This document shows positions 5,797-40,526 of a stretch of 41,085 nt of DNA, piece by piece; the first letter of the stretch is position 1, and each line of letters opens with the position of its first letter. Source of the DNA: a virus; UHGV virus genome UHGV-0335424; one strand, written 5' to 3'. A model generated the notes under the pieces. That model searched no databases. It saw only the letters and a list, made by a program, of their open reading frames with translations, and had not been told where the DNA came from. Position numbers and translations under genes: made by a program.

Positions 5797-6074
5797 CAAT
5801 CCCCGTTATAGGCGTTACTGTAACGCCTAAAACCTCAAGCGCAGTTGCGGGGACTGCTGGCAATAGACAATTAACAGCCACCGTTGCGCCACAAAACGCA
5901 ACAAATAAAACAGTGACGTATTCAATTGCGCCAGTAACAAGCGGATTGACAGTTTCTTCTAGCGGTAATATCACTTGGACTGACACAGTACCAGCCGGTA
6001 AATACACGACAACAATAAAAACGGAAGATGGATCACACACAGATACTCACGTTTTGACACTGACTGAGCCGTAG
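5781..6074 (+). CDS. Big_2 (bacterial Ig-like) domain ORF with no start codon, in the -1 frame. Predicted to be a C-terminal extension of the major capsid protein via programmed frameshift at GGGGG (5787..5791).
   Basis: Frame 0 is open from 5781 to TAG at 6072..6074. It reads …VIGVTVTPKTSSAVAGTAGNRQLTATVAPQNATNKTVTYSIAPVTSGLTVSSSGNITWTDTVPAGKYTTTIKTEDGSHTDTHVLTLTEP, a textbook Big_2 signature. There is no ATG/GTG/TTG start and no RBS. The capsid frame ends GCG GGG GAG TAA inside a G5 run. Confidence 0.6.
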   Translation, partial: TGGGVTIPVIGVTVTPKTSSAVAGTAGNRQLTATVAPQNATNKTVTYSIAPVTSGLTVSSSGNITWTDTVPAGKYTTTIKTEDGSHTDTHVLTLTEP

Positions 6075-22302: not shown

Positions 22303-23322
22303 ATGAAAAAGAAAATTACTATTACTGCGATGAGCCTATTAATGGCTCTTTTTTTATTGCCAATTAACGGGTTCGCCTATACGATTAACAATGAATTCAA
22401 TTTAGGTGCAAATGAAGGTAGCTCACAAGTAGCAAATAATCAGTACATTTTACTGCATGAAACGGCTAATGAAACAGCAACAGGACGCAATGAAGCGCAG
22501 TATATGCAACGTTCATGGACTAGTGCTTACACTGCTTACATTGTGGGAGACGGTGGAATTGTTTATCAAGTCGGACAACCTGGTTATGTACAGTACGGTG
22601 CTGGTTCGTATGCTAATGCCAATAGTCCTGTGCAGATTGAGTTACAACACACACATAATAAAGCAACTTTTGAAAAGAACTATAAAGCATACGTTGAATT
22701 GGCTAGAGATTCAGCAATAAAATATGGTATTCCATTAACATTAGACACTCCTTATAACCAACCAGGAATCAAATCGCATTTATGGGTAACACAAAATATT
22801 TGGGGCGATCATACAGATCCTTATGGATACTTGTCAGAAATGGGTGTGAGTAAGGAAAAACTGGCTTACGATTTAGCCCATGGATTTACAGATGAAAATC
22901 CGACAACTTCCGATGATAGACCAGTCATTGATCCAACTAGAGCAGGTGCTGCAAATCCTACACTTACAGATGGAACAAATTATGCCCACATTGATCAGTT
23001 CGGAGAAATCGAAAATGCGAACTTGCATGTTGCTGGATGGCACATCGCTAACTATAAATACGAGTATGTTTTCATTATGGACTATAATACTGGAAAAGAA
23101 TTAGCTCGAGTAAGAGCTGATGGAATTTATAGACCAGATGTAAATCAAGCTTACAATACTTATGGAAAAGTTGGTTATCATGTATCGTTCAACATGCGTA
23201 ATTTCCCCAACAAGAAAGTATACGTCATGATGCGTGCAACGAATGATCCAGAAGGGAACACTAAAGGCGGAGCACAAGATTTTCATGATAAGCGTTGGTA
23301 TTTGAATATTCCACAACGATAA
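22303..23322 (+). CDS. Endolysin: N-acetylmuramoyl-L-alanine amidase-type catalytic domain with an N-terminal signal peptide and a C-terminal cell-wall-binding region.
   Basis: 339 aa. N-terminus MKKKITITAMSLLMALFLLPINGFA|YT looks like a Sec signal peptide. Amidase-like motifs (ILLHETANE, YGAGSYANANSPVQIELQH). Confidence 0.75.
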   Translation: MKKKITITAMSLLMALFLLPINGFAYTINNEFNLGANEGSSQVANNQYILLHETANETATGRNEAQYMQRSWTSAYTAYIVGDGGIVYQVGQPGYVQYGAGSYANANSPVQIELQHTHNKATFEKNYKAYVELARDSAIKYGIPLTLDTPYNQPGIKSHLWVTQNIWGDHTDPYGYLSEMGVSKEKLAYDLAHGFTDENPTTSDDRPVIDPTRAGAANPTLTDGTNYAHIDQFGEIENANLHVAGWHIANYKYEYVFIMDYNTGKELARVRADGIYRPDVNQAYNTYGKVGYHVSFNMRNFPNKKVYVMMRATNDPEGNTKGGAQDFHDKRWYLNIPQR

Positions 23323-23361
23323 AAATAGCCCCTCGATGAGGGGCGGTACATATATTATATT
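23321..23361. repeat. Direct repeat copy 1, 41 bp, containing the hairpin GCCCCTCgatGAGGGGC.
   Basis: Matches 24406..24445 at 41 of 42 positions. Immediately follows the endolysin stop. Confidence 0.7.
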
Positions 23362-23388
23362 AATTAAAATAATAAATTAAATATGCAT

Positions 23389-23417
23389 TGACAGCGGTGA
23401 AATGTAAAGGTAAGATT
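23389..23417 (+). promoter_or_regulatory. Sigma-A-type promoter of the moron cassette.
   Basis: TTGACA, 17 nt, TAAGAT. Confidence 0.45.
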
Positions 23418-23447
23418 TATATATCGGCGGCTTTAAGGAGAACAGGC

Positions 23448-23981
23448 GTGGAACGAAAAGAAAATTATGCAAAATCTATAAAAAATTGGTTAACAGTTAT
23501 ATCATCTGTTAGTTTTTTAGTGAGTACATATAAAGTGGCAACTATCGATGCCGTTTTTTTGTATGCTTTTACTTATTTGTCTTCGATAGGCTTAGCTTTT
23601 TATAATCTAACACCGCAAGGCAACCAAGCAAAAATAAGGCGTAAAAGAATGATTGAATTTGCCATAGCAAGTGTAGCGTTTATCTTTATTGGTATTACCT
23701 TAGGCACAATTCACCCTATAATTAAAATGAGTATGCTATACTTAATTAAAGCTACTTATGTGATTTTTGCTGTGTTAGCAGTCATATACACCTTTAAGGA
23801 CGATCTTGATACAGAAAGTATTGAAGAAAAAGATGCGAAATCAAGCGTGAGGAAAAGTTTGCAAGAACAGGAAAAAACCAAGCCTTTTAAAGAAAGAGAA
23901 AAGAGATCGGTGGAAAATAAAAGAATCAGAAAATTTTTATTAAAAAAGAAGGATTCTAGAAGCAGGGAGGACATAAGATGA
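23448..23981 (+). CDS. Membrane protein with four predicted transmembrane helices and a highly charged K/E/R-rich C-terminal tail (moron gene 1).
   Basis: GTG start after AAGGAG. The ORF-track TTG at 23388 coincides with the -35 hexamer. Confidence 0.5.
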   Translation: MERKENYAKSIKNWLTVISSVSFLVSTYKVATIDAVFLYAFTYLSSIGLAFYNLTPQGNQAKIRRKRMIEFAIASVAFIFIGITLGTIHPIIKMSMLYLIKATYVIFAVLAVIYTFKDDLDTESIEEKDAKSSVRKSLQEQEKTKPFKEREKRSVENKRIRKFLLKKKDSRSREDIR

Positions 23982-24355
23982 ATGCTATTATAATTTTTGT
24001 AACATCGTTGCTAGTTTATTATAGTGGACTTATGTATTTAACTCGTGCTACATTCAAAAAGAATAATATAAAGTTGAGTGTTTTAATGACTTTATTTGTT
24101 CCTTTCTATATTCTCAAAACGTATCTATCAGTAGCTTATAAATATAAAAAACAATCACGAATTAGAAATCATGCAATTTTAGAATTGCTTTTTGGATATA
24201 CTGCGGGCTTAGCGATTTTCGTAGAAATTGTACGTTTTGGATTTGAGAATAAATATATTGTCTCAGAGAAGAAAGAACCAAAAGGCCTCTCATCTTTAAT
24301 TTCTAAAGCGAGAGAACCTTTTTCTAATACTTTAAATGAATATTTAGCTTATTAA
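23978..24355 (+). CDS. Small membrane protein with three predicted transmembrane helices (moron gene 2).
   Basis: 125 aa. Start overlaps the preceding stop (ATGA), suggesting translational coupling. Confidence 0.5.
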   Translation: MNAIIIFVTSLLVYYSGLMYLTRATFKKNNIKLSVLMTLFVPFYILKTYLSVAYKYKKQSRIRNHAILELLFGYTAGLAIFVEIVRFGFENKYIVSEKKEPKGLSSLISKAREPFSNTLNEYLAY

Positions 24356-24397
24356 AAAAGAGCCTCTAATTATAATGAGGTTCTTTTTTTTTATTTT
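24353..24397 (+). terminator. Rho-independent terminator of the moron cassette.
   Basis: AAGAGCCTC…GAGGTTCTT stem followed by a T10 run. Confidence 0.6.
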
Positions 24398-24405
24398 AAG
24401 TTATA

Positions 24406-24445
24406 AAAAAATAGCCCCTCGATGAGGGGCGGTACATAATTATAT
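24406..24445. repeat. Direct repeat copy 2, hairpin-containing.
   Basis: Matches 23321..23361. Confidence 0.7.
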
Positions 24446-24480
24446 TGAAAACTATAAAAATCATTCGATAAAATAGTGAT

Positions 24481-24584: not shown

Positions 24585-24658
24585 GTACCCTTAGCTCAGT
24601 TGGTTAGAGCAGACGGCTCATAACCGTCCGGTCGTAGGCTCGAGTCCTACAGGGTACA
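24585..24658 (+). tRNA. tRNA with anticodon CAU, either elongator Met or Ile2 (lysidine); not an initiator.
   Basis: Hand-folded cloverleaf: acceptor GTACCCT/AGGGTAC, D-arm GCTC-AGTTGGTTA-GAGC, anticodon arm GACGG-CTCATAA-CCGTC, T-arm GTAGG-CTCGAGT-CCTAC, discriminator A. No encoded CCA. Confidence 0.75.
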
Positions 24659-25172: not shown

Positions 25173-25472
25173 TTAATCTTTGTATCTTTCTGGATCAACG
25201 AAAGTATACTTTATATAGTCATAACGCCGATGATCGCTTCGAGCGTCTGGCACGTCAGTCACGACATCAAACAAAAAATATACATCTTTCTTCATTCTAG
25301 TTTTCGCAGCAGGAATTTTAAAGTAGTTCTTATTAGAATAGTAGAGATTGATTAATAAGCTATCTTCGATTGCTAAAAAGAAAACTTCTGAATTCCATAC
25401 TTTATAAAAATCTTTGATAAATCTATTCGAAGGATCGAATTTAAACCATAATTGCGTCTCATTAAAAAGCAT
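25173..25472 (-). CDS. Hypothetical protein (99 aa); second gene of a minus-strand accessory operon.
   Basis: ATG at 25472 with GGAG 8 nt upstream. The track start at 25478 has a poor spacer. No family recognised. Confidence 0.45.
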   Translation of the reverse strand: MLFNETQLWFKFDPSNRFIKDFYKVWNSEVFFLAIEDSLLINLYYSNKNYFKIPAAKTRMKKDVYFLFDVVTDVPDARSDHRRYDYIKYTFVDPERYKD

Positions 25473-25486
25473 AACCATTACTCCAA

Positions 25487-25717
25487 TCAGTTTTTAAACT
25501 TAGTTTCTACCTCTAATATATATCGAGTTTTTATTTTACCTTCAGAGAATACCGTTTCTTTTTTTGCAGTTACAGGTTGTTTATTTTCGGAAAAAGCTAA
25601 TATAGCTAAAATTGAAACATCCATCTGGAATTTATCTTTTTTGCTGCTTTGCTCATAAAAATCTGCATATTCATCACTGATATTTTTTCTAATAAAGTCT
25701 TCCATCATAAAAATCAC
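25487..25717 (-). CDS. Hypothetical small protein (76 aa) with a central hydrophobic segment; first gene of the accessory operon.
   Basis: RBS GAGGTGA. Preceded by a consensus promoter. Confidence 0.45.
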   Translation of the reverse strand: MIFMMEDFIRKNISDEYADFYEQSSKKDKFQMDVSILAILAFSENKQPVTAKKETVFSEGKIKTRYILEVETKFKN

Positions 25718-25755: not shown

Positions 25756-25766
25756 GCGATATTTGA

Positions 25767-25788
25767 GGGGCAAAAAAGGGGCAAAAAA
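25767..25788. repeat. Tandem GGGGCAAAAAA x2.
   Basis: Two exact 11-mers. The same motif recurs at 25981..26002. Confidence 0.7.
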
Positions 25789-25825
25789 CTCTTACTAGTC
25801 CGTTCTAGCCTAATAATTTTAAGTA

Positions 25826-25854
25826 TTATCAACGTTGTTTTTTCTTGATATAAT
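25826..25854 (+). promoter_or_regulatory. Promoter: TTATCA, 17 nt, TATAAT.
   Basis: Perfect -10 hexamer with a 17-nt spacer. Confidence 0.45.
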
Positions 25855-25861
25855 GGGATTT

Positions 25862-25962
25862 TTGTCCAGTACGTACAAGCTAAAAACGTTTGTCTTGATG
25901 GGCGGTATGATGTAGTAATTAAGAAAGAACCCTGTTAAAATAGGGTTCTTTCTTCTTTTTTT
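25862..25962 (+). ncRNA. Candidate small RNA of about 100 nt between the promoter and a strong terminator.
   Basis: No RBS-supported ORF; the longest ORF is MGGMM. Ends in a 13-bp perfect stem followed by a U-run. Confidence 0.35.
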
Positions 25963-25972
25963 GTTTTATTTT
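25921..25972 (+). terminator. Rho-independent terminator.
   Basis: AAGAAAGAACCCT-gttaaaat-AGGGTTCTTTCTT followed by CTTTTTTTGTTTTATTTT. Confidence 0.7.
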
Positions 25973-25980
25973 AAGCAAAA

Positions 25981-26002
25981 GGGGCAAAGAAGGGGCAAAA
26001 AT
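25981..26002. repeat. Tandem GGGGCAAAGAA / GGGGCAAAAAT.
   Basis: Second pair of the GGGGCAAA motif. Abuts the integrase stop codon. Confidence 0.7.
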
Positions 26003-31907: not shown

Positions 31908-32249
31908 ATGGAAAATGAACTTTCCACTCTAGATCAATATTTGGCCGATCCTGATTGGGGCAAATCGAATAGTAAGGAAACAAACAACCGAAAAATCAGA
32001 CGAAATCTTTTTACAAATGAAGAACTAGCATGTGATCAAGATGACTTGGGAAACTTTGTGAGTATTTGGGATCATGTTTACCTTATCCATCTATCGAAAC
32101 ATTCGAATAAACCTGAATATATTTATGTCGCCGAAGATGGCTTGATTGATGCGCTCGAAGAGTACGAAAGGGATAACTTGATTGATATCTCTTATTACGG
32201 ACAAGGCAAAAAATACATCGCTGAAATGGAGGCAGAATTTGATGAGTGA
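31908..32249 (+). CDS. Hypothetical protein.
   Basis: RBS AAGGAG. Confidence 0.45.
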   Translation: MENELSTLDQYLADPDWGKSNSKETNNRKIRRNLFTNEELACDQDDLGNFVSIWDHVYLIHLSKHSNKPEYIYVAEDGLIDALEEYERDNLIDISYYGQGKKYIAEMEAEFDE

Positions 32250-32988
32250 AAAGGAACAACCTTTGAAAAATAGAAGTGATAATACGCTTTTTAATAGCTT
32301 ATACAAAATAAATGTGAAAGATGTTACTGAAAAACGAAATAACCTCACTTATCTTTCGTGGGCATGGGCTTGGGCAGAAGTTAGCAAAGTGTGTGAGGCA
32401 GTAGATTATGAAATCTATCGTGATCCAGAAACGCATCGTCCATACCTCTTTGATGAAAAAACAGGCTATATGGTTTTTACCAGTATCACAGTCAACGGAG
32501 TAAAGCGTGACATGTGGTTACCAGTCATGGATGGTGCAAACAAGGCAATGAAAGATGAGCCATATACCTACGAAGTCAATGATTATCAGTGGAATAACGA
32601 AACGAAGAAAAAAGAGATTGTTGGAAAAATCGAAAAGCGAGTTGAAGCAGCAACTATGTTTGATATCAACAAAACGATCATGCGCTGTCTTGTAAAAAAT
32701 CTAGCAATGTTTGGGCTAGGGCTATATATATTTGCTGGCGAAGATATGCCAGAAGATGTCTCGATGCTTGAACCAGCTACTCAAAGAAGCAAAAAGCTAT
32801 TCTTGGATGCTTTACAACTGGTTGCTAACAAGTACGAAAAATCAATTGATGAAGCAATTGTTGCATTGACTGATGCGGCTTCTATAACCGCTGATGACAG
32901 TAAATGGACCAAGAGAGACTTGGGCATTCTAAAACGAGGCGTTAATTGGCTTGAAGATCAGTACAGAGAAGAAACAAAAGAGAAGTGA
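32242..32988 (+). CDS. Single-strand annealing protein, Rad52/Sak-like (DUF1071-like).
   Basis: Motif NLTYLSWAWAWAEV. Position just before the replication genes fits. Confidence 0.55.
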   Translation: MSEKEQPLKNRSDNTLFNSLYKINVKDVTEKRNNLTYLSWAWAWAEVSKVCEAVDYEIYRDPETHRPYLFDEKTGYMVFTSITVNGVKRDMWLPVMDGANKAMKDEPYTYEVNDYQWNNETKKKEIVGKIEKRVEAATMFDINKTIMRCLVKNLAMFGLGLYIFAGEDMPEDVSMLEPATQRSKKLFLDALQLVANKYEKSIDEAIVALTDAASITADDSKWTKRDLGILKRGVNWLEDQYREETKEK

Positions 32989-32993
32989 TATGA

Positions 32994-33680
32994 GTGTTTA
33001 AACCACTAATAGATTCATACTCGGCGGTACTAAAGAAATTTAAAGGTAACGACATTGGTGCAACAATCAACGAAGAAGTAAATATCGAACGGCTGAAAAC
33101 GATGTATGACGGCTATGATGGCGATCGAATCATTGAAATTCGCTTTATTGATCCACGTCGGTTCACAGTACAGCAAAGAAACTTCATCTATGCGCTCATA
33201 GGCGATATTTTCATCGATACAGGCATGCCAACGGACTTCTGGAAGGAATTCTTCTACTTCCGTTTCGAAGGTGTCACAGGGCGCGAAATAAGCCTCAAAG
33301 ACGAATCGAGCACAACCGTGAGTGATGCCAATATCTTAGCGAATATCATCCTAGATTTTATCTTTGAACATCATATTCCTTTCAAAGAAGGTTATGAGAT
33401 TTTACCAGCTAATCAAGAATATTACTTCTACAAATGCATCACAAAAAGAGTCTGCTGCATCTGTGGCAAAACAGGAGCTGATATCGATCACTTTGATAAA
33501 GCGTTAGGAAGACGAAAGCGCAAAGAAGTTGATCATTCAGAGTACACATTTGCAGCACTCTGCAGAATCCATCATACGGAGAAACACAAAATAGGTGTGA
33601 TCAATTTCAAAAATAAATATCAAATCAAAGGGATCAAGTTAAACCAGGAAACAATCAAAAAGTTAAATATTGGAGGGTAA
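32994..33680 (+). CDS. HNH-motif (His-Me finger) protein.
   Basis: CCICGKTGADIDH…ALCRIHHTEKH. Confidence 0.45.
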   Translation: MFKPLIDSYSAVLKKFKGNDIGATINEEVNIERLKTMYDGYDGDRIIEIRFIDPRRFTVQQRNFIYALIGDIFIDTGMPTDFWKEFFYFRFEGVTGREISLKDESSTTVSDANILANIILDFIFEHHIPFKEGYEILPANQEYYFYKCITKRVCCICGKTGADIDHFDKALGRRKRKEVDHSEYTFAALCRIHHTEKHKIGVINFKNKYQIKGIKLNQETIKKLNIGG

Positions 33681-40259: not shown

Positions 40260-40268
40260 ATATTTTAT

Positions 40269-40340
40269 TGACGTGAAGCATCTGTGGTGATACGTCTGAC
40301 TTTTAATCAGAAGGTGCAGGTTCGAATCCTGTCACATCAA
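40269..40340 (+). tRNA. tRNA-like element, possibly a degenerate tRNA-Lys(UUU).
   Basis: Canonical T-arm GCAGG-TTCGAAT-CCTGT. Perfect anticodon stem TCTGA-CTTTTAA-TCAGA. Acceptor stem pairs at 6 of 7 positions and D-stem at 3 of 4. Position 8 is A rather than the usual U. Confidence 0.35.
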
Positions 40341-40526
40341 TTAGTAACCGAGGGGGGTATGAACTCGTGTGGTGCGAGCCCTAGGGAGGAACAGGATAAC
40401 CGCCTGTGTGTAGGTTGCTATTACATAGTTGGTTAGGTTAGATTGAGTTTTGGGATTTGGTACAAATGAATCGTCAAATGACTCAAGCACAGGATCGGAA
40501 ACGTCCCTGCCTGTGCATTACATATG

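Follow-up and report, generated by a model that had tools for sequence, protein, structure and literature searches.

What kind of element lies behind the endolysin gene of the phage genome UHGV-0335424, how did it reach this position, and what may its two membrane proteins do? The window analyzed here is the entire stretch of 41,085 nucleotides (nt), a circularly permuted genome of a temperate siphophage whose relatives are phages and prophages of the Enterococcus faecium group. Between the endolysin gene and a tRNA gene it harbors a unit of 1086 bp, composed of one hairpin copy and positions 23362-24406, which encodes two membrane proteins and is bracketed by two copies of the same hairpin. 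The best explanation overall is a moron cassette that is exchanged at this hairpin and encodes a membrane protein pair protecting the lysogen. Taken as a whole this explanation is considered probable, although with reservations that differ between its parts.

A two-gene cassette bracketed by hairpin copies

The unit contains the following features, where ORF denotes an open reading frame and aa amino acids.

23321-23361: left copy of the repeat (HP-L), with a stem-loop at 23328-23344, followed by GGTACATA
23388-23416, plus strand: predicted promoter of the SigA/sigma-70 type (TTGACA-17-TAAGAT), with 10 of 12 consensus matches
23448-23981, plus strand: ORF1, a membrane protein of 177 aa with four transmembrane (TM) helices and a charged C-terminal tail of 61 aa; GTG start with a ribosome-binding site
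23978-24355, plus strand: ORF2, a membrane protein of 125 aa with three TM helices, whose ATG overlaps the stop codon of ORF1 (ATGA)
24354-24397, plus strand: predicted intrinsic terminator of the cassette (A-run, stem GAGCCUC/GAGGUUC, T-run; -16.3 kcal/mol, z = -4.1)
24407-24446: right copy of the repeat (HP-R), with a stem-loop at 24414-24430

The direct repeat is exact over 32 nt (23321-23352 and 24407-24438) and continues past a 1-nt indel, an extra T at 23353, to positions 23361 and 24446. The copies of 41 and 40 nt share 40 matches in 41 positions, and the chance expectation of such a repeat in 41 kb is ~5e-11. A preliminary description of this DNA had recognized the repeat correctly, but its second copy, placed at 24406-24445, was off by one and its count of 41 identical positions in 42 was approximate. 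Each copy contains the hairpin GCCCCTC-GAT-GAGGGGC with a 7-bp stem, a 3-nt loop and a folding energy of -13.8 kcal/mol. The conserved boundary element consists of an A-run, GCCCCTCGWTGAGGGGC and GTACATA. The endolysin gene ends with a TAA stop codon (23320-23322) that extends into the A-run of the left copy. On its 3' side HP-R continues into ATTATATTGAAAAC..., and the same sequence is located 3' of the single hairpin in phages with an empty site.

At least nine related phages (L001, L021, L031, L050, L051, L058, L067, L068 and L073) show such an empty site, in which endolysin gene, hairpin and tRNA leader are contiguous, the flanks are only 33-36 nt apart and no insert is present. Both Enterococcus phage 4995_1 and the record titled 'Listeria phage LM 4-11-1' have one hairpin after the endolysin stop codon and, directly after it, the sequence that lies downstream of HP-R in the window. 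The comparison of presence and absence exactly at the repeat, which had been proposed as a check, thus revealed at least nine relatives with a single hairpin and no insert. Occupied sites contain two hairpin copies and empty sites one, presumably because cassettes recombine at the hairpin element.

It could be argued that the repeat is an artefact of assembly or a chance duplication of no consequence, since the window is identical to a contig from a metagenome assembly (ENA contig ERZ783501 NODE_57, in which 41140 nt correspond to the 41085 nt of the window plus a terminal overlap of 55 nt). However, the same structure occurs in independent NCBI genome assemblies as well as in ENA and Logan contigs, on different backbones and with 99.7-100% identity of the cassette. 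Together with the low chance expectation this refutes the objection, and its probability is regarded as negligible.

The promoter and the terminator that had been reported for the unit are both predicted between the repeat copies. The promoter lies outside the repeat, and none was found after the right copy. The start of ORF1 called by the program, a TTG at 23388, is the -35 box of this promoter; the most likely start in the sequence is the GTG at 23448, which is preceded by the ribosome-binding site AAGGAG at 23435-23440. The number of helices, assigned from hydropathy and from the secondary structure of AlphaFold2 models, the ATGA overlap and the tail of 61 residues, 21 of which are K/R and 15 D/E, agree with the earlier picture of a 4-helix protein with a charged tail coupled to a 3-helix protein. 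Application of the positive-inside rule to ORF1 would place its N-terminus, its KIRRKR loop and its basic tail in the cytoplasm. Both ORFs are under purifying selection, with pN values (nonsynonymous polymorphism) of 0.20-0.39 versus pS values (synonymous polymorphism) of 0.59-0.72 against three homologues; for ORF1 the pN/pS against homologues is ~0.3-0.4. The low pN relative to pS shows that ORF1 and ORF2 are real genes. The GC content of the cassette is 29.5%, lower than the 37.0% of the genome and the 38.1% of the endolysin gene. With empty sites in relatives, a promoter and a terminator of its own and a lower GC content, the architecture is that of a moron, as had been suggested, and at the level of sequence the unit qualifies as such by every criterion that can be tested there.

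A transposon with terminal inverted repeats was considered and rejected. The candidate repeats (23355-23376 and 24387-24408) match at 18 of 22 positions, consist purely of A and T and are, by our own estimate, compatible with chance; no transposase is present. The features of an insertion sequence are lacking as well, as there is neither a transposase nor a short target-site duplication, the duplicated segment comprising 41-45 bp.

Probable exchange of cassettes at the hairpin

The window was aligned with four other carriers of the cassette, L004 (GCA_016767635.1), L006 (GCA_964189765.1), L011 and L013, on phage backbones with different tail modules. For L004, L006 and L011 no difference was found over 1057 nt between positions 23327 and 24383, whereas the endolysin gene of these carriers shows 5-15 differences per 100 nt up to position 23326. 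Three differences are located at 24384-24397, in the T-run and the spacer, and differences resume at 24449. The flanks of the cassette differ by 6-13% from the diverged carriers, and at this divergence the probability of 1057 identical bases is ~5e-36. The synonymous divergence (dS) of the endolysin gene is 0.44 versus no synonymous change in ~900 coding nt of the cassette. The switch of identity at the hairpins and the absence of any difference within the cassette show that the segment from hairpin to hairpin was recently exchanged among diverged phages. A second cassette at this site, cassette B, is 99.0-99.5% identical between its carriers versus 83-93% in the neighboring end of the endolysin gene. 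For the structure and the evolution of the locus, these comparisons make a moron cassette that is exchanged at the hairpin very likely.

The hairpin is not restricted to this cassette. A pattern scan detected the motif in 63 phage stretches of IMG/VR with 69 copies in total. The 3' end of an endolysin gene is located 5' of the hairpin in nearly all of these stretches, and 24 unrelated continuations follow on its 3' side, each beginning directly after GTACATA. Two hairpin copies in direct orientation also enclose at least five further cassettes:

Cassette B, minus strand: proteins of 104 aa and 53 aa (L012, L035, L063)
Cassette C: three genes, the last one SecB-like, a PD-T4-9-like system (L038)
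Cassette D: a single-pass protein of 211 aa (L046)
Cassette E: a protein of 341 aa with C-terminal membrane helices (L055)
Cassette F: a single-pass protein of 193 aa (L066, L073, L078)

Cassettes B, E and F are located on the strand opposite to that of the cassette under study. In L012 a tandem array of the order hairpin-B-hairpin-A was found, where A is the cassette under study, and filled and empty states of cassette B were also observed in another right-hand context. The preliminary description had regarded the repeat as the terminator hairpin of the endolysin gene in duplicated form. The hairpin does follow the endolysin gene, but it has an A-run on its 5' side and no T-run on its 3' side, and a consensus scan assigned a terminator to the minus strand only; for the endolysin transcript it is at best a weak stop. 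Nor is it the product of a one-off duplication, as it represents a conserved boundary that is common to many Enterococcus phages and brackets unrelated cassettes. The stem of 4995_1 harbors a compensatory change (GCTCCTC/GAGGAGC), which indicates that the hairpin structure is under selection. The loop contains a T in both copies of L013 and an A in both copies of the window; this match within each genome indicates that the two hairpin copies are concerted. In the diverged prophage L014 (Enterococcus sp. AZ095b, 5820-5897) a nested hairpin of ~60 nt is located within the loop of the post-endolysin hairpin, and the structure as a whole has a folding energy of -33.5 kcal/mol.

To characterize the cargo of this slot, 36 representative slot proteins were scanned against family libraries. 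The cargo comprises four AbiD/Abi_2 clusters (Abi, abortive infection), two of DUF3800 and single cases of MazF, SocA/Panacea, PIN, PBECR4, a SecB-like protein and PDC-S02. By these family assignments the slot is a hotspot of defence and toxin-antitoxin genes. The cassette of L038 (10833-12138; cf. L049) contains genes for proteins of 192 aa, 93 aa and 149 aa, the last of which is SecB-like and matches PD-T4-9_C with E=7.6e-13; according to this match it is a defence system of the toxin-antitoxin-chaperone type in Enterococcus phages. In L066 (2317-3115), L073 and L078 the left hairpin follows a LysM-type lysin, and a remnant of ~100 nt from the 3' end of an Amidase_2 endolysin gene lies just 5' of the right hairpin. 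This remnant fits a scar of an exchange between phages with different endolysins. A tRNA gene can be a cassette boundary as well: tRNA copies in L002 (4210-4284 and ~6211) bracket a DUF3800 cassette of ~1.9 kb.

Features outside the unit that mark the site or may take part in the exchange are:

22303-23322, plus strand: endolysin gene, Amidase_2, 339 aa, left anchor of the insertion site (Pfam PF01510, E=6.5e-13)
24585-24658, plus strand: phage-borne tRNA gene with anticodon CAT, right anchor of the site (ARAGORN; Rfam RF00005, 67 bits)
32182-32988, plus strand: Sak-type (Rad52-like) single-strand annealing protein (Pfam PF06378, E=3.8e-46)

For Rad52-like recombinases of phages, which are a driving force of mosaicism, as little as ~23-27 bp of identity suffices (PMC3945230). 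The Sak gene is followed by a gene for an HNHc_6 nuclease (32182-33680 for both), and the two could form a recombination module able to act on the short homology of the hairpin. The hairpin element would provide 26-45 nt of portable homology common to many phages and, as a terminator oriented towards the minus strand, would shield the late operon. Gain, loss and replacement of cassettes would result from recombination at this element, probably through short homology and with the aid of the Sak protein, which we infer to be the catalyst.

Alternatively, the hairpin copies might be sites of a site-specific recombinase, either pseudo-attachment sites of the integrase, in which the hairpin and GGTACATA resemble the 3' end of a tRNA gene, or elements like the attC sites of integrons. 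Several observations are in line with this possibility. The homology breaks at one position, directly after GTACATA, in 24 contexts, the duplication of 41-45 bp has the size of an att core, and a tyrosine integrase gene is located 1.6 kb away. Furthermore, the 3' end of the tRNA gene (...CAGGGTACAT) resembles the flank of the hairpin (...GGCGGTACATA), and the tRNA gene also bounds cassettes in L002 and L086. However, this resemblance covers 7 nt and is post hoc. The stem of 7 bp is perfect and lacks the bulges and R/L boxes of attC sites, no gene of the IntI type is adjacent, and the cassettes possess promoters. Homology to the integrated prophages L004, L006 and L011 spans the tRNA gene and the DUF5960 genes up to position 25756, where it ends; this rules out the tRNA gene as phage attachment site (attP) and places attP elsewhere. 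The endolysin remnant at the right copy in L066, L073 and L078 fits homologous or illegitimate exchange and not site-specific capture. An integron-like arrangement was rejected because no defining feature of integrons is present: the stem lacks attC features, no IntI gene is adjacent, promoters occur and cassettes are found in both orientations. Site-specific recombination at the hairpin is therefore very unlikely. A stronger version of the favored explanation would be that hairpin and GTACATA form a dedicated docking box for cassette exchange, similar to promoter-early stem-loop (PeSL) or att elements and possibly mimicking a tRNA 3' end, and that ORF1 and ORF2 found a new two-component membrane exclusion or Abi system conserved beside the endolysins of Lactobacillales prophages. 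This combination is conceivable but on the unlikely side.

The setting of the exchanged cassette is that of a temperate phage genome. The gene order in the window is terminase, portal, tail, XhlA-like protein, Dp-1 holin, Amidase_2 endolysin and the insert, followed by tRNA(CAT), the DUF5960 gene pair, the tyrosine integrase, repressors and replication genes. The integrase is of the phage type, is encoded convergently and is the sole recombinase near the cassette. The tRNA(CAT) is complete, is labelled tRNA-Ile in phage 4995_1 and was the sole match of the Rfam scan. The DUF5960 unit (25173-25717, minus strand) is conserved and encodes the DUF5960 protein (101 aa, PHROG 16386) and a partner of 75-76 aa; it is positioned between the tRNA gene and attP and recurs in many related phages. 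The sequence AGGGGCAAAAAAGGGGCAAAA is found at 25766, and a copy with one change is located at 25980. These copies flank the likely attP beside the integrase gene (25756-26000) and may be arm-type binding sites. The N-terminus of the endolysin (22303-22385) reads MKKKITITAMSLLMALFLLPINGFA followed by YT and resembles a signal peptide or a signal-arrest-release (SAR) sequence, which suggests an exported endolysin whose activation would depend on membrane depolarization. A second phage-borne tRNA gene (Lys, TTT; 40268-40341) is located just 3' of an HNH endonuclease gene near the end of the window. The GenBank records OR846730, OR848098 and PQ554527, titled 'Listeria phage LM 4-11-1 / 4-14-1' and 'Acinetobacter phage D2SVT', share the Enterococcus-type endolysin region with 84-92% nucleotide identity, and their host labels look doubtful.

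Possible function of the gene pair

The two proteins match no recognized family, as the preliminary description had stated. Searches of Pfam, PHROGs, PADLOC and NCBIfam gave only sub-threshold matches for both, with no family of PADLOC-DB 2.0 at E<=1 and no holin match in Pfam or PHROGs. A word-indexed search retrieved five clusters for ORF1 and two for ORF2, an exhaustive search with a profile, covering 1.8 billion representatives, detected 32 relatives of ORF1, all of 165-225 aa and with the same plan, and a third large protein search with a wide alignment of the ORF1 family yielded nine proteins. The named relatives originate from Enterococcus, Lactococcus and Leuconostoc, and all are labelled hypothetical. 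No match was obtained by tblastn of both proteins against 50,697 GenBank phages, or by tblastn of ORF1 and blastn of the cassette against 72,556 plasmids. Likewise, no match was confirmed for an alignment of close ORF1 relatives in GTDB species genomes or for two distant members of the ORF1 family in IMG/VR. On the basis of these searches the pair is a new, small and uncharacterized family of the Lactobacillales.

Homologues with 62%, 55% and 22% identity are located directly after unlike endolysins, namely an Amidase_2 of 297 aa, an Amidase_3 and an Amidase_3 with CW_7. Each has an overlapping partner of 125-130 aa and is preceded by a gap of 170-190 nt that contains a hairpin and a promoter (TTGACT-17-TATGAT or TATAAT). 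All homologous loci that were examined encode a partner resembling ORF2, with the same size and overlap. The predicted equivalents of the promoter at the diverged homologues L014, L086 and L085 are TTGACT-17-TATGAT, TAAAAT and TATAAT, respectively. In L086 the pair starts just after a tRNA gene (2733-2817), and a DUF3825 cassette separates it from the endolysin gene.

In the favored explanation the SigA promoter of the cassette drives transcription of the pair, presumably in the lysogen, and the cassette would yield two translationally coupled proteins of the inner membrane. ORF1 would span the membrane four times, with both termini inside and the long basic tail in the cytoplasm, and ORF2 three times. 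A complex of both would guard the lysogen against other phages, the candidate mechanisms being superinfection exclusion at the membrane and abortive infection with membrane depolarization. This reading was adopted because a strong promoter of the housekeeping type is conserved and the unit is insulated by terminators, because the pair is dispensable in phages with the same lysis genes, because the slot is otherwise filled with Abi and toxin-antitoxin genes, and because the pair occurs exclusively in phages or prophages. A precedent is PdpSau of S. aureus prophages, which is anchored in the membrane, has a basic cytoplasmic domain, is always encoded directly 3' of the amidase gene and confers abortive infection against Kayvirus, accompanied by membrane depolarization (PMC10127798). 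A prophage-expressed membrane defence by two proteins, acting through exclusion or Abi, is proposed tentatively; it is the leading candidate but falls somewhat short of being probable.

Several results weigh against the favored explanation. No link of the pair to any known defence, exclusion or Abi protein was found by sequence, profile or fold; Foldseek searches of the PDB matched nothing but generic helical bundles (best E = 0.13), and the family profile had no match among PDB sequences. The AlphaFold2 models are poor, with predicted local distance difference test (pLDDT) values of 69 and 57. The functional reading draws only on location and architecture. In addition, no T-run follows the hairpin on the plus strand, and late transcripts may therefore read into the gene pair. 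Finally, the diverged homologues L014, L082, L085 and L086 are devoid of the right-hand hairpin repeat, a finding that the preliminary description had listed as contradicting a moron. Such copies without flanking repeats do exist, but the moron status stands, because they keep their own promoter and the same position as post-endolysin cargo. Their lack of the right-hand repeat indicates that the bracketing belongs to the hairpin system of the E. faecium group and not to the gene family.

The persistent proximity to lysis genes raises the possibility of an accessory lysis function, in which the pair is a timing regulator similar to holin and antiholin that is expressed from the late operon and kept beside the endolysin gene for this purpose. 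Homologues down to 22% identity are always encoded close to the 3' end of the lysis cassette, next to three unrelated types of endolysin and holin, and both proteins share traits with holins, being small and having three to four TM helices and a charged C-terminus. The possible read-through from the endolysin gene would fit such a role as well. However, the pair is absent from at least nine phages that have the same holin and endolysin, and it was found in none of the 63 IMG/VR stretches that have the hairpin. Its own strong promoter, as predicted, is kept in four of five diverged loci, another cassette and a tRNA gene lie between the pair and the endolysin gene in L086, and no holin family of Pfam matches at E<1. 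The phage moreover already encodes an XhlA-like protein and a Dp-1 holin. A lysis function is therefore quite unlikely, and among the functions suggested in the preliminary description the holin-antiholin option is the least supported, as phages with the same lysis cassette do not carry the pair. Somewhat less unlikely, but still improbable, is lysogenic conversion unrelated to phages, in which the pair could, for example, confer immunity to bacteriocins or membrane stress, form a small transporter or channel, or stabilize the prophage as a membrane toxin and antidote of the addiction type. The region between lysin and attachment site of Firmicutes prophages classically houses conversion genes, the pair is preceded by a promoter of its own, toxin-antitoxin modules (MazF, PIN and SocA) are also found in the slot, and no defence model matches the pair. 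On the other hand, no immunity, transporter or toxin-antitoxin family matches it either, most of the identifiable neighbors in the slot are anti-phage genes (AbiD, PD-T4-9, PDC-S02), and the pair was found in phage or prophage contexts and never on plasmids. Membrane defence of the lysogen thus remains the favored function.

Significance and relation to known systems

To a specialist the moron itself is ordinary, whereas hairpin-delimited and recently exchanged defence cassettes are moderately interesting. Prophages of the E. faecium group affect the outcome of phage therapy, and the post-endolysin hairpin is a simple sequence handle for locating their variable defence cargo. The locus supplies natural pairs of filled and empty sites as well as a candidate route by which cargo could move between diverged phages through short homology. 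The gene pair itself is a compact uncharacterized membrane module of ~1 kb with natural knock-out comparators.

Morons were reportedly defined by Juhala, Hendrix and coworkers in 2000 as units of promoter, gene and terminator from comparisons of HK97 and HK022. Like the lambdoid morons, the cassette consists of extra genes between features that are adjacent in relatives, has a promoter and a terminator of its own, deviates in base composition and is dispensable. Unlike classic morons it contains two coupled genes instead of one, its expression in the prophage is presumed, and a duplicated hairpin of 32-41 nt brackets it and bounds other cassettes as well. The defence hotspots of P2/P4 prophages and satellites, which Rousset is said to have described in 2022, share with this locus a fixed slot, conserved flanks and a variable cargo enriched in defence and toxin-antitoxin genes. 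They belong to another phage group, and in the locus studied here a specific short hairpin, duplicated between cassettes, forms the boundary. With integron cassettes the locus has in common that hairpin-forming repeats separate the cassettes and that tandem arrays occur (L012); it differs from them in the absence of an IntI gene, in the perfect short stem without attC features, in the promoters of the cassettes and in their occurrence in either orientation.

PdpSau and the lactococcal AbiP (PMC10127798) are likewise encoded by accessory prophage genes 3' of an amidase gene, are embedded in the membrane, have a positively charged cytoplasmic C-terminal part and spread horizontally. The likeness to PdpSau concerns position and architecture; no homology was detected, though none was tested for directly. 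PdpSau is a single protein with one TM helix and an OB-fold, whereas two polytopic proteins with no recognizable soluble domain are encoded here. The near-100% identical segment amid diverged flanks and the presence of an annealing protein of the Sak family resemble the mosaicism attributed to Rad52-like recombinases (PMC3945230). In contrast to that mosaicism, which involves diverged gene segments, the shared homology is a structured terminator of just 26-45 nt. PeSLs are mobile regulatory cassettes of T4-type phages (PMC2839356, PMC4122927). As in PeSLs, non-essential ORFs are flanked by copies of a short conserved regulatory motif that contains a terminator stem-loop and marks the boundaries of indels and replacements between close relatives. 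Recombination between PeSL copies yields mini-circles. The PeSL motif combines a strong promoter with a terminator stem-loop, whereas the repeat described here consists of the hairpin and GTACATA without a promoter. PeSLs occupy many hyperplastic regions of a virulent myovirus, and the hairpin marks one post-endolysin slot in a temperate siphophage of Firmicutes. If the hairpin is a true exchange site, modular shuffling of the PeSL type would extend from virulent T4-like phages to temperate siphophages of Gram-positive bacteria.

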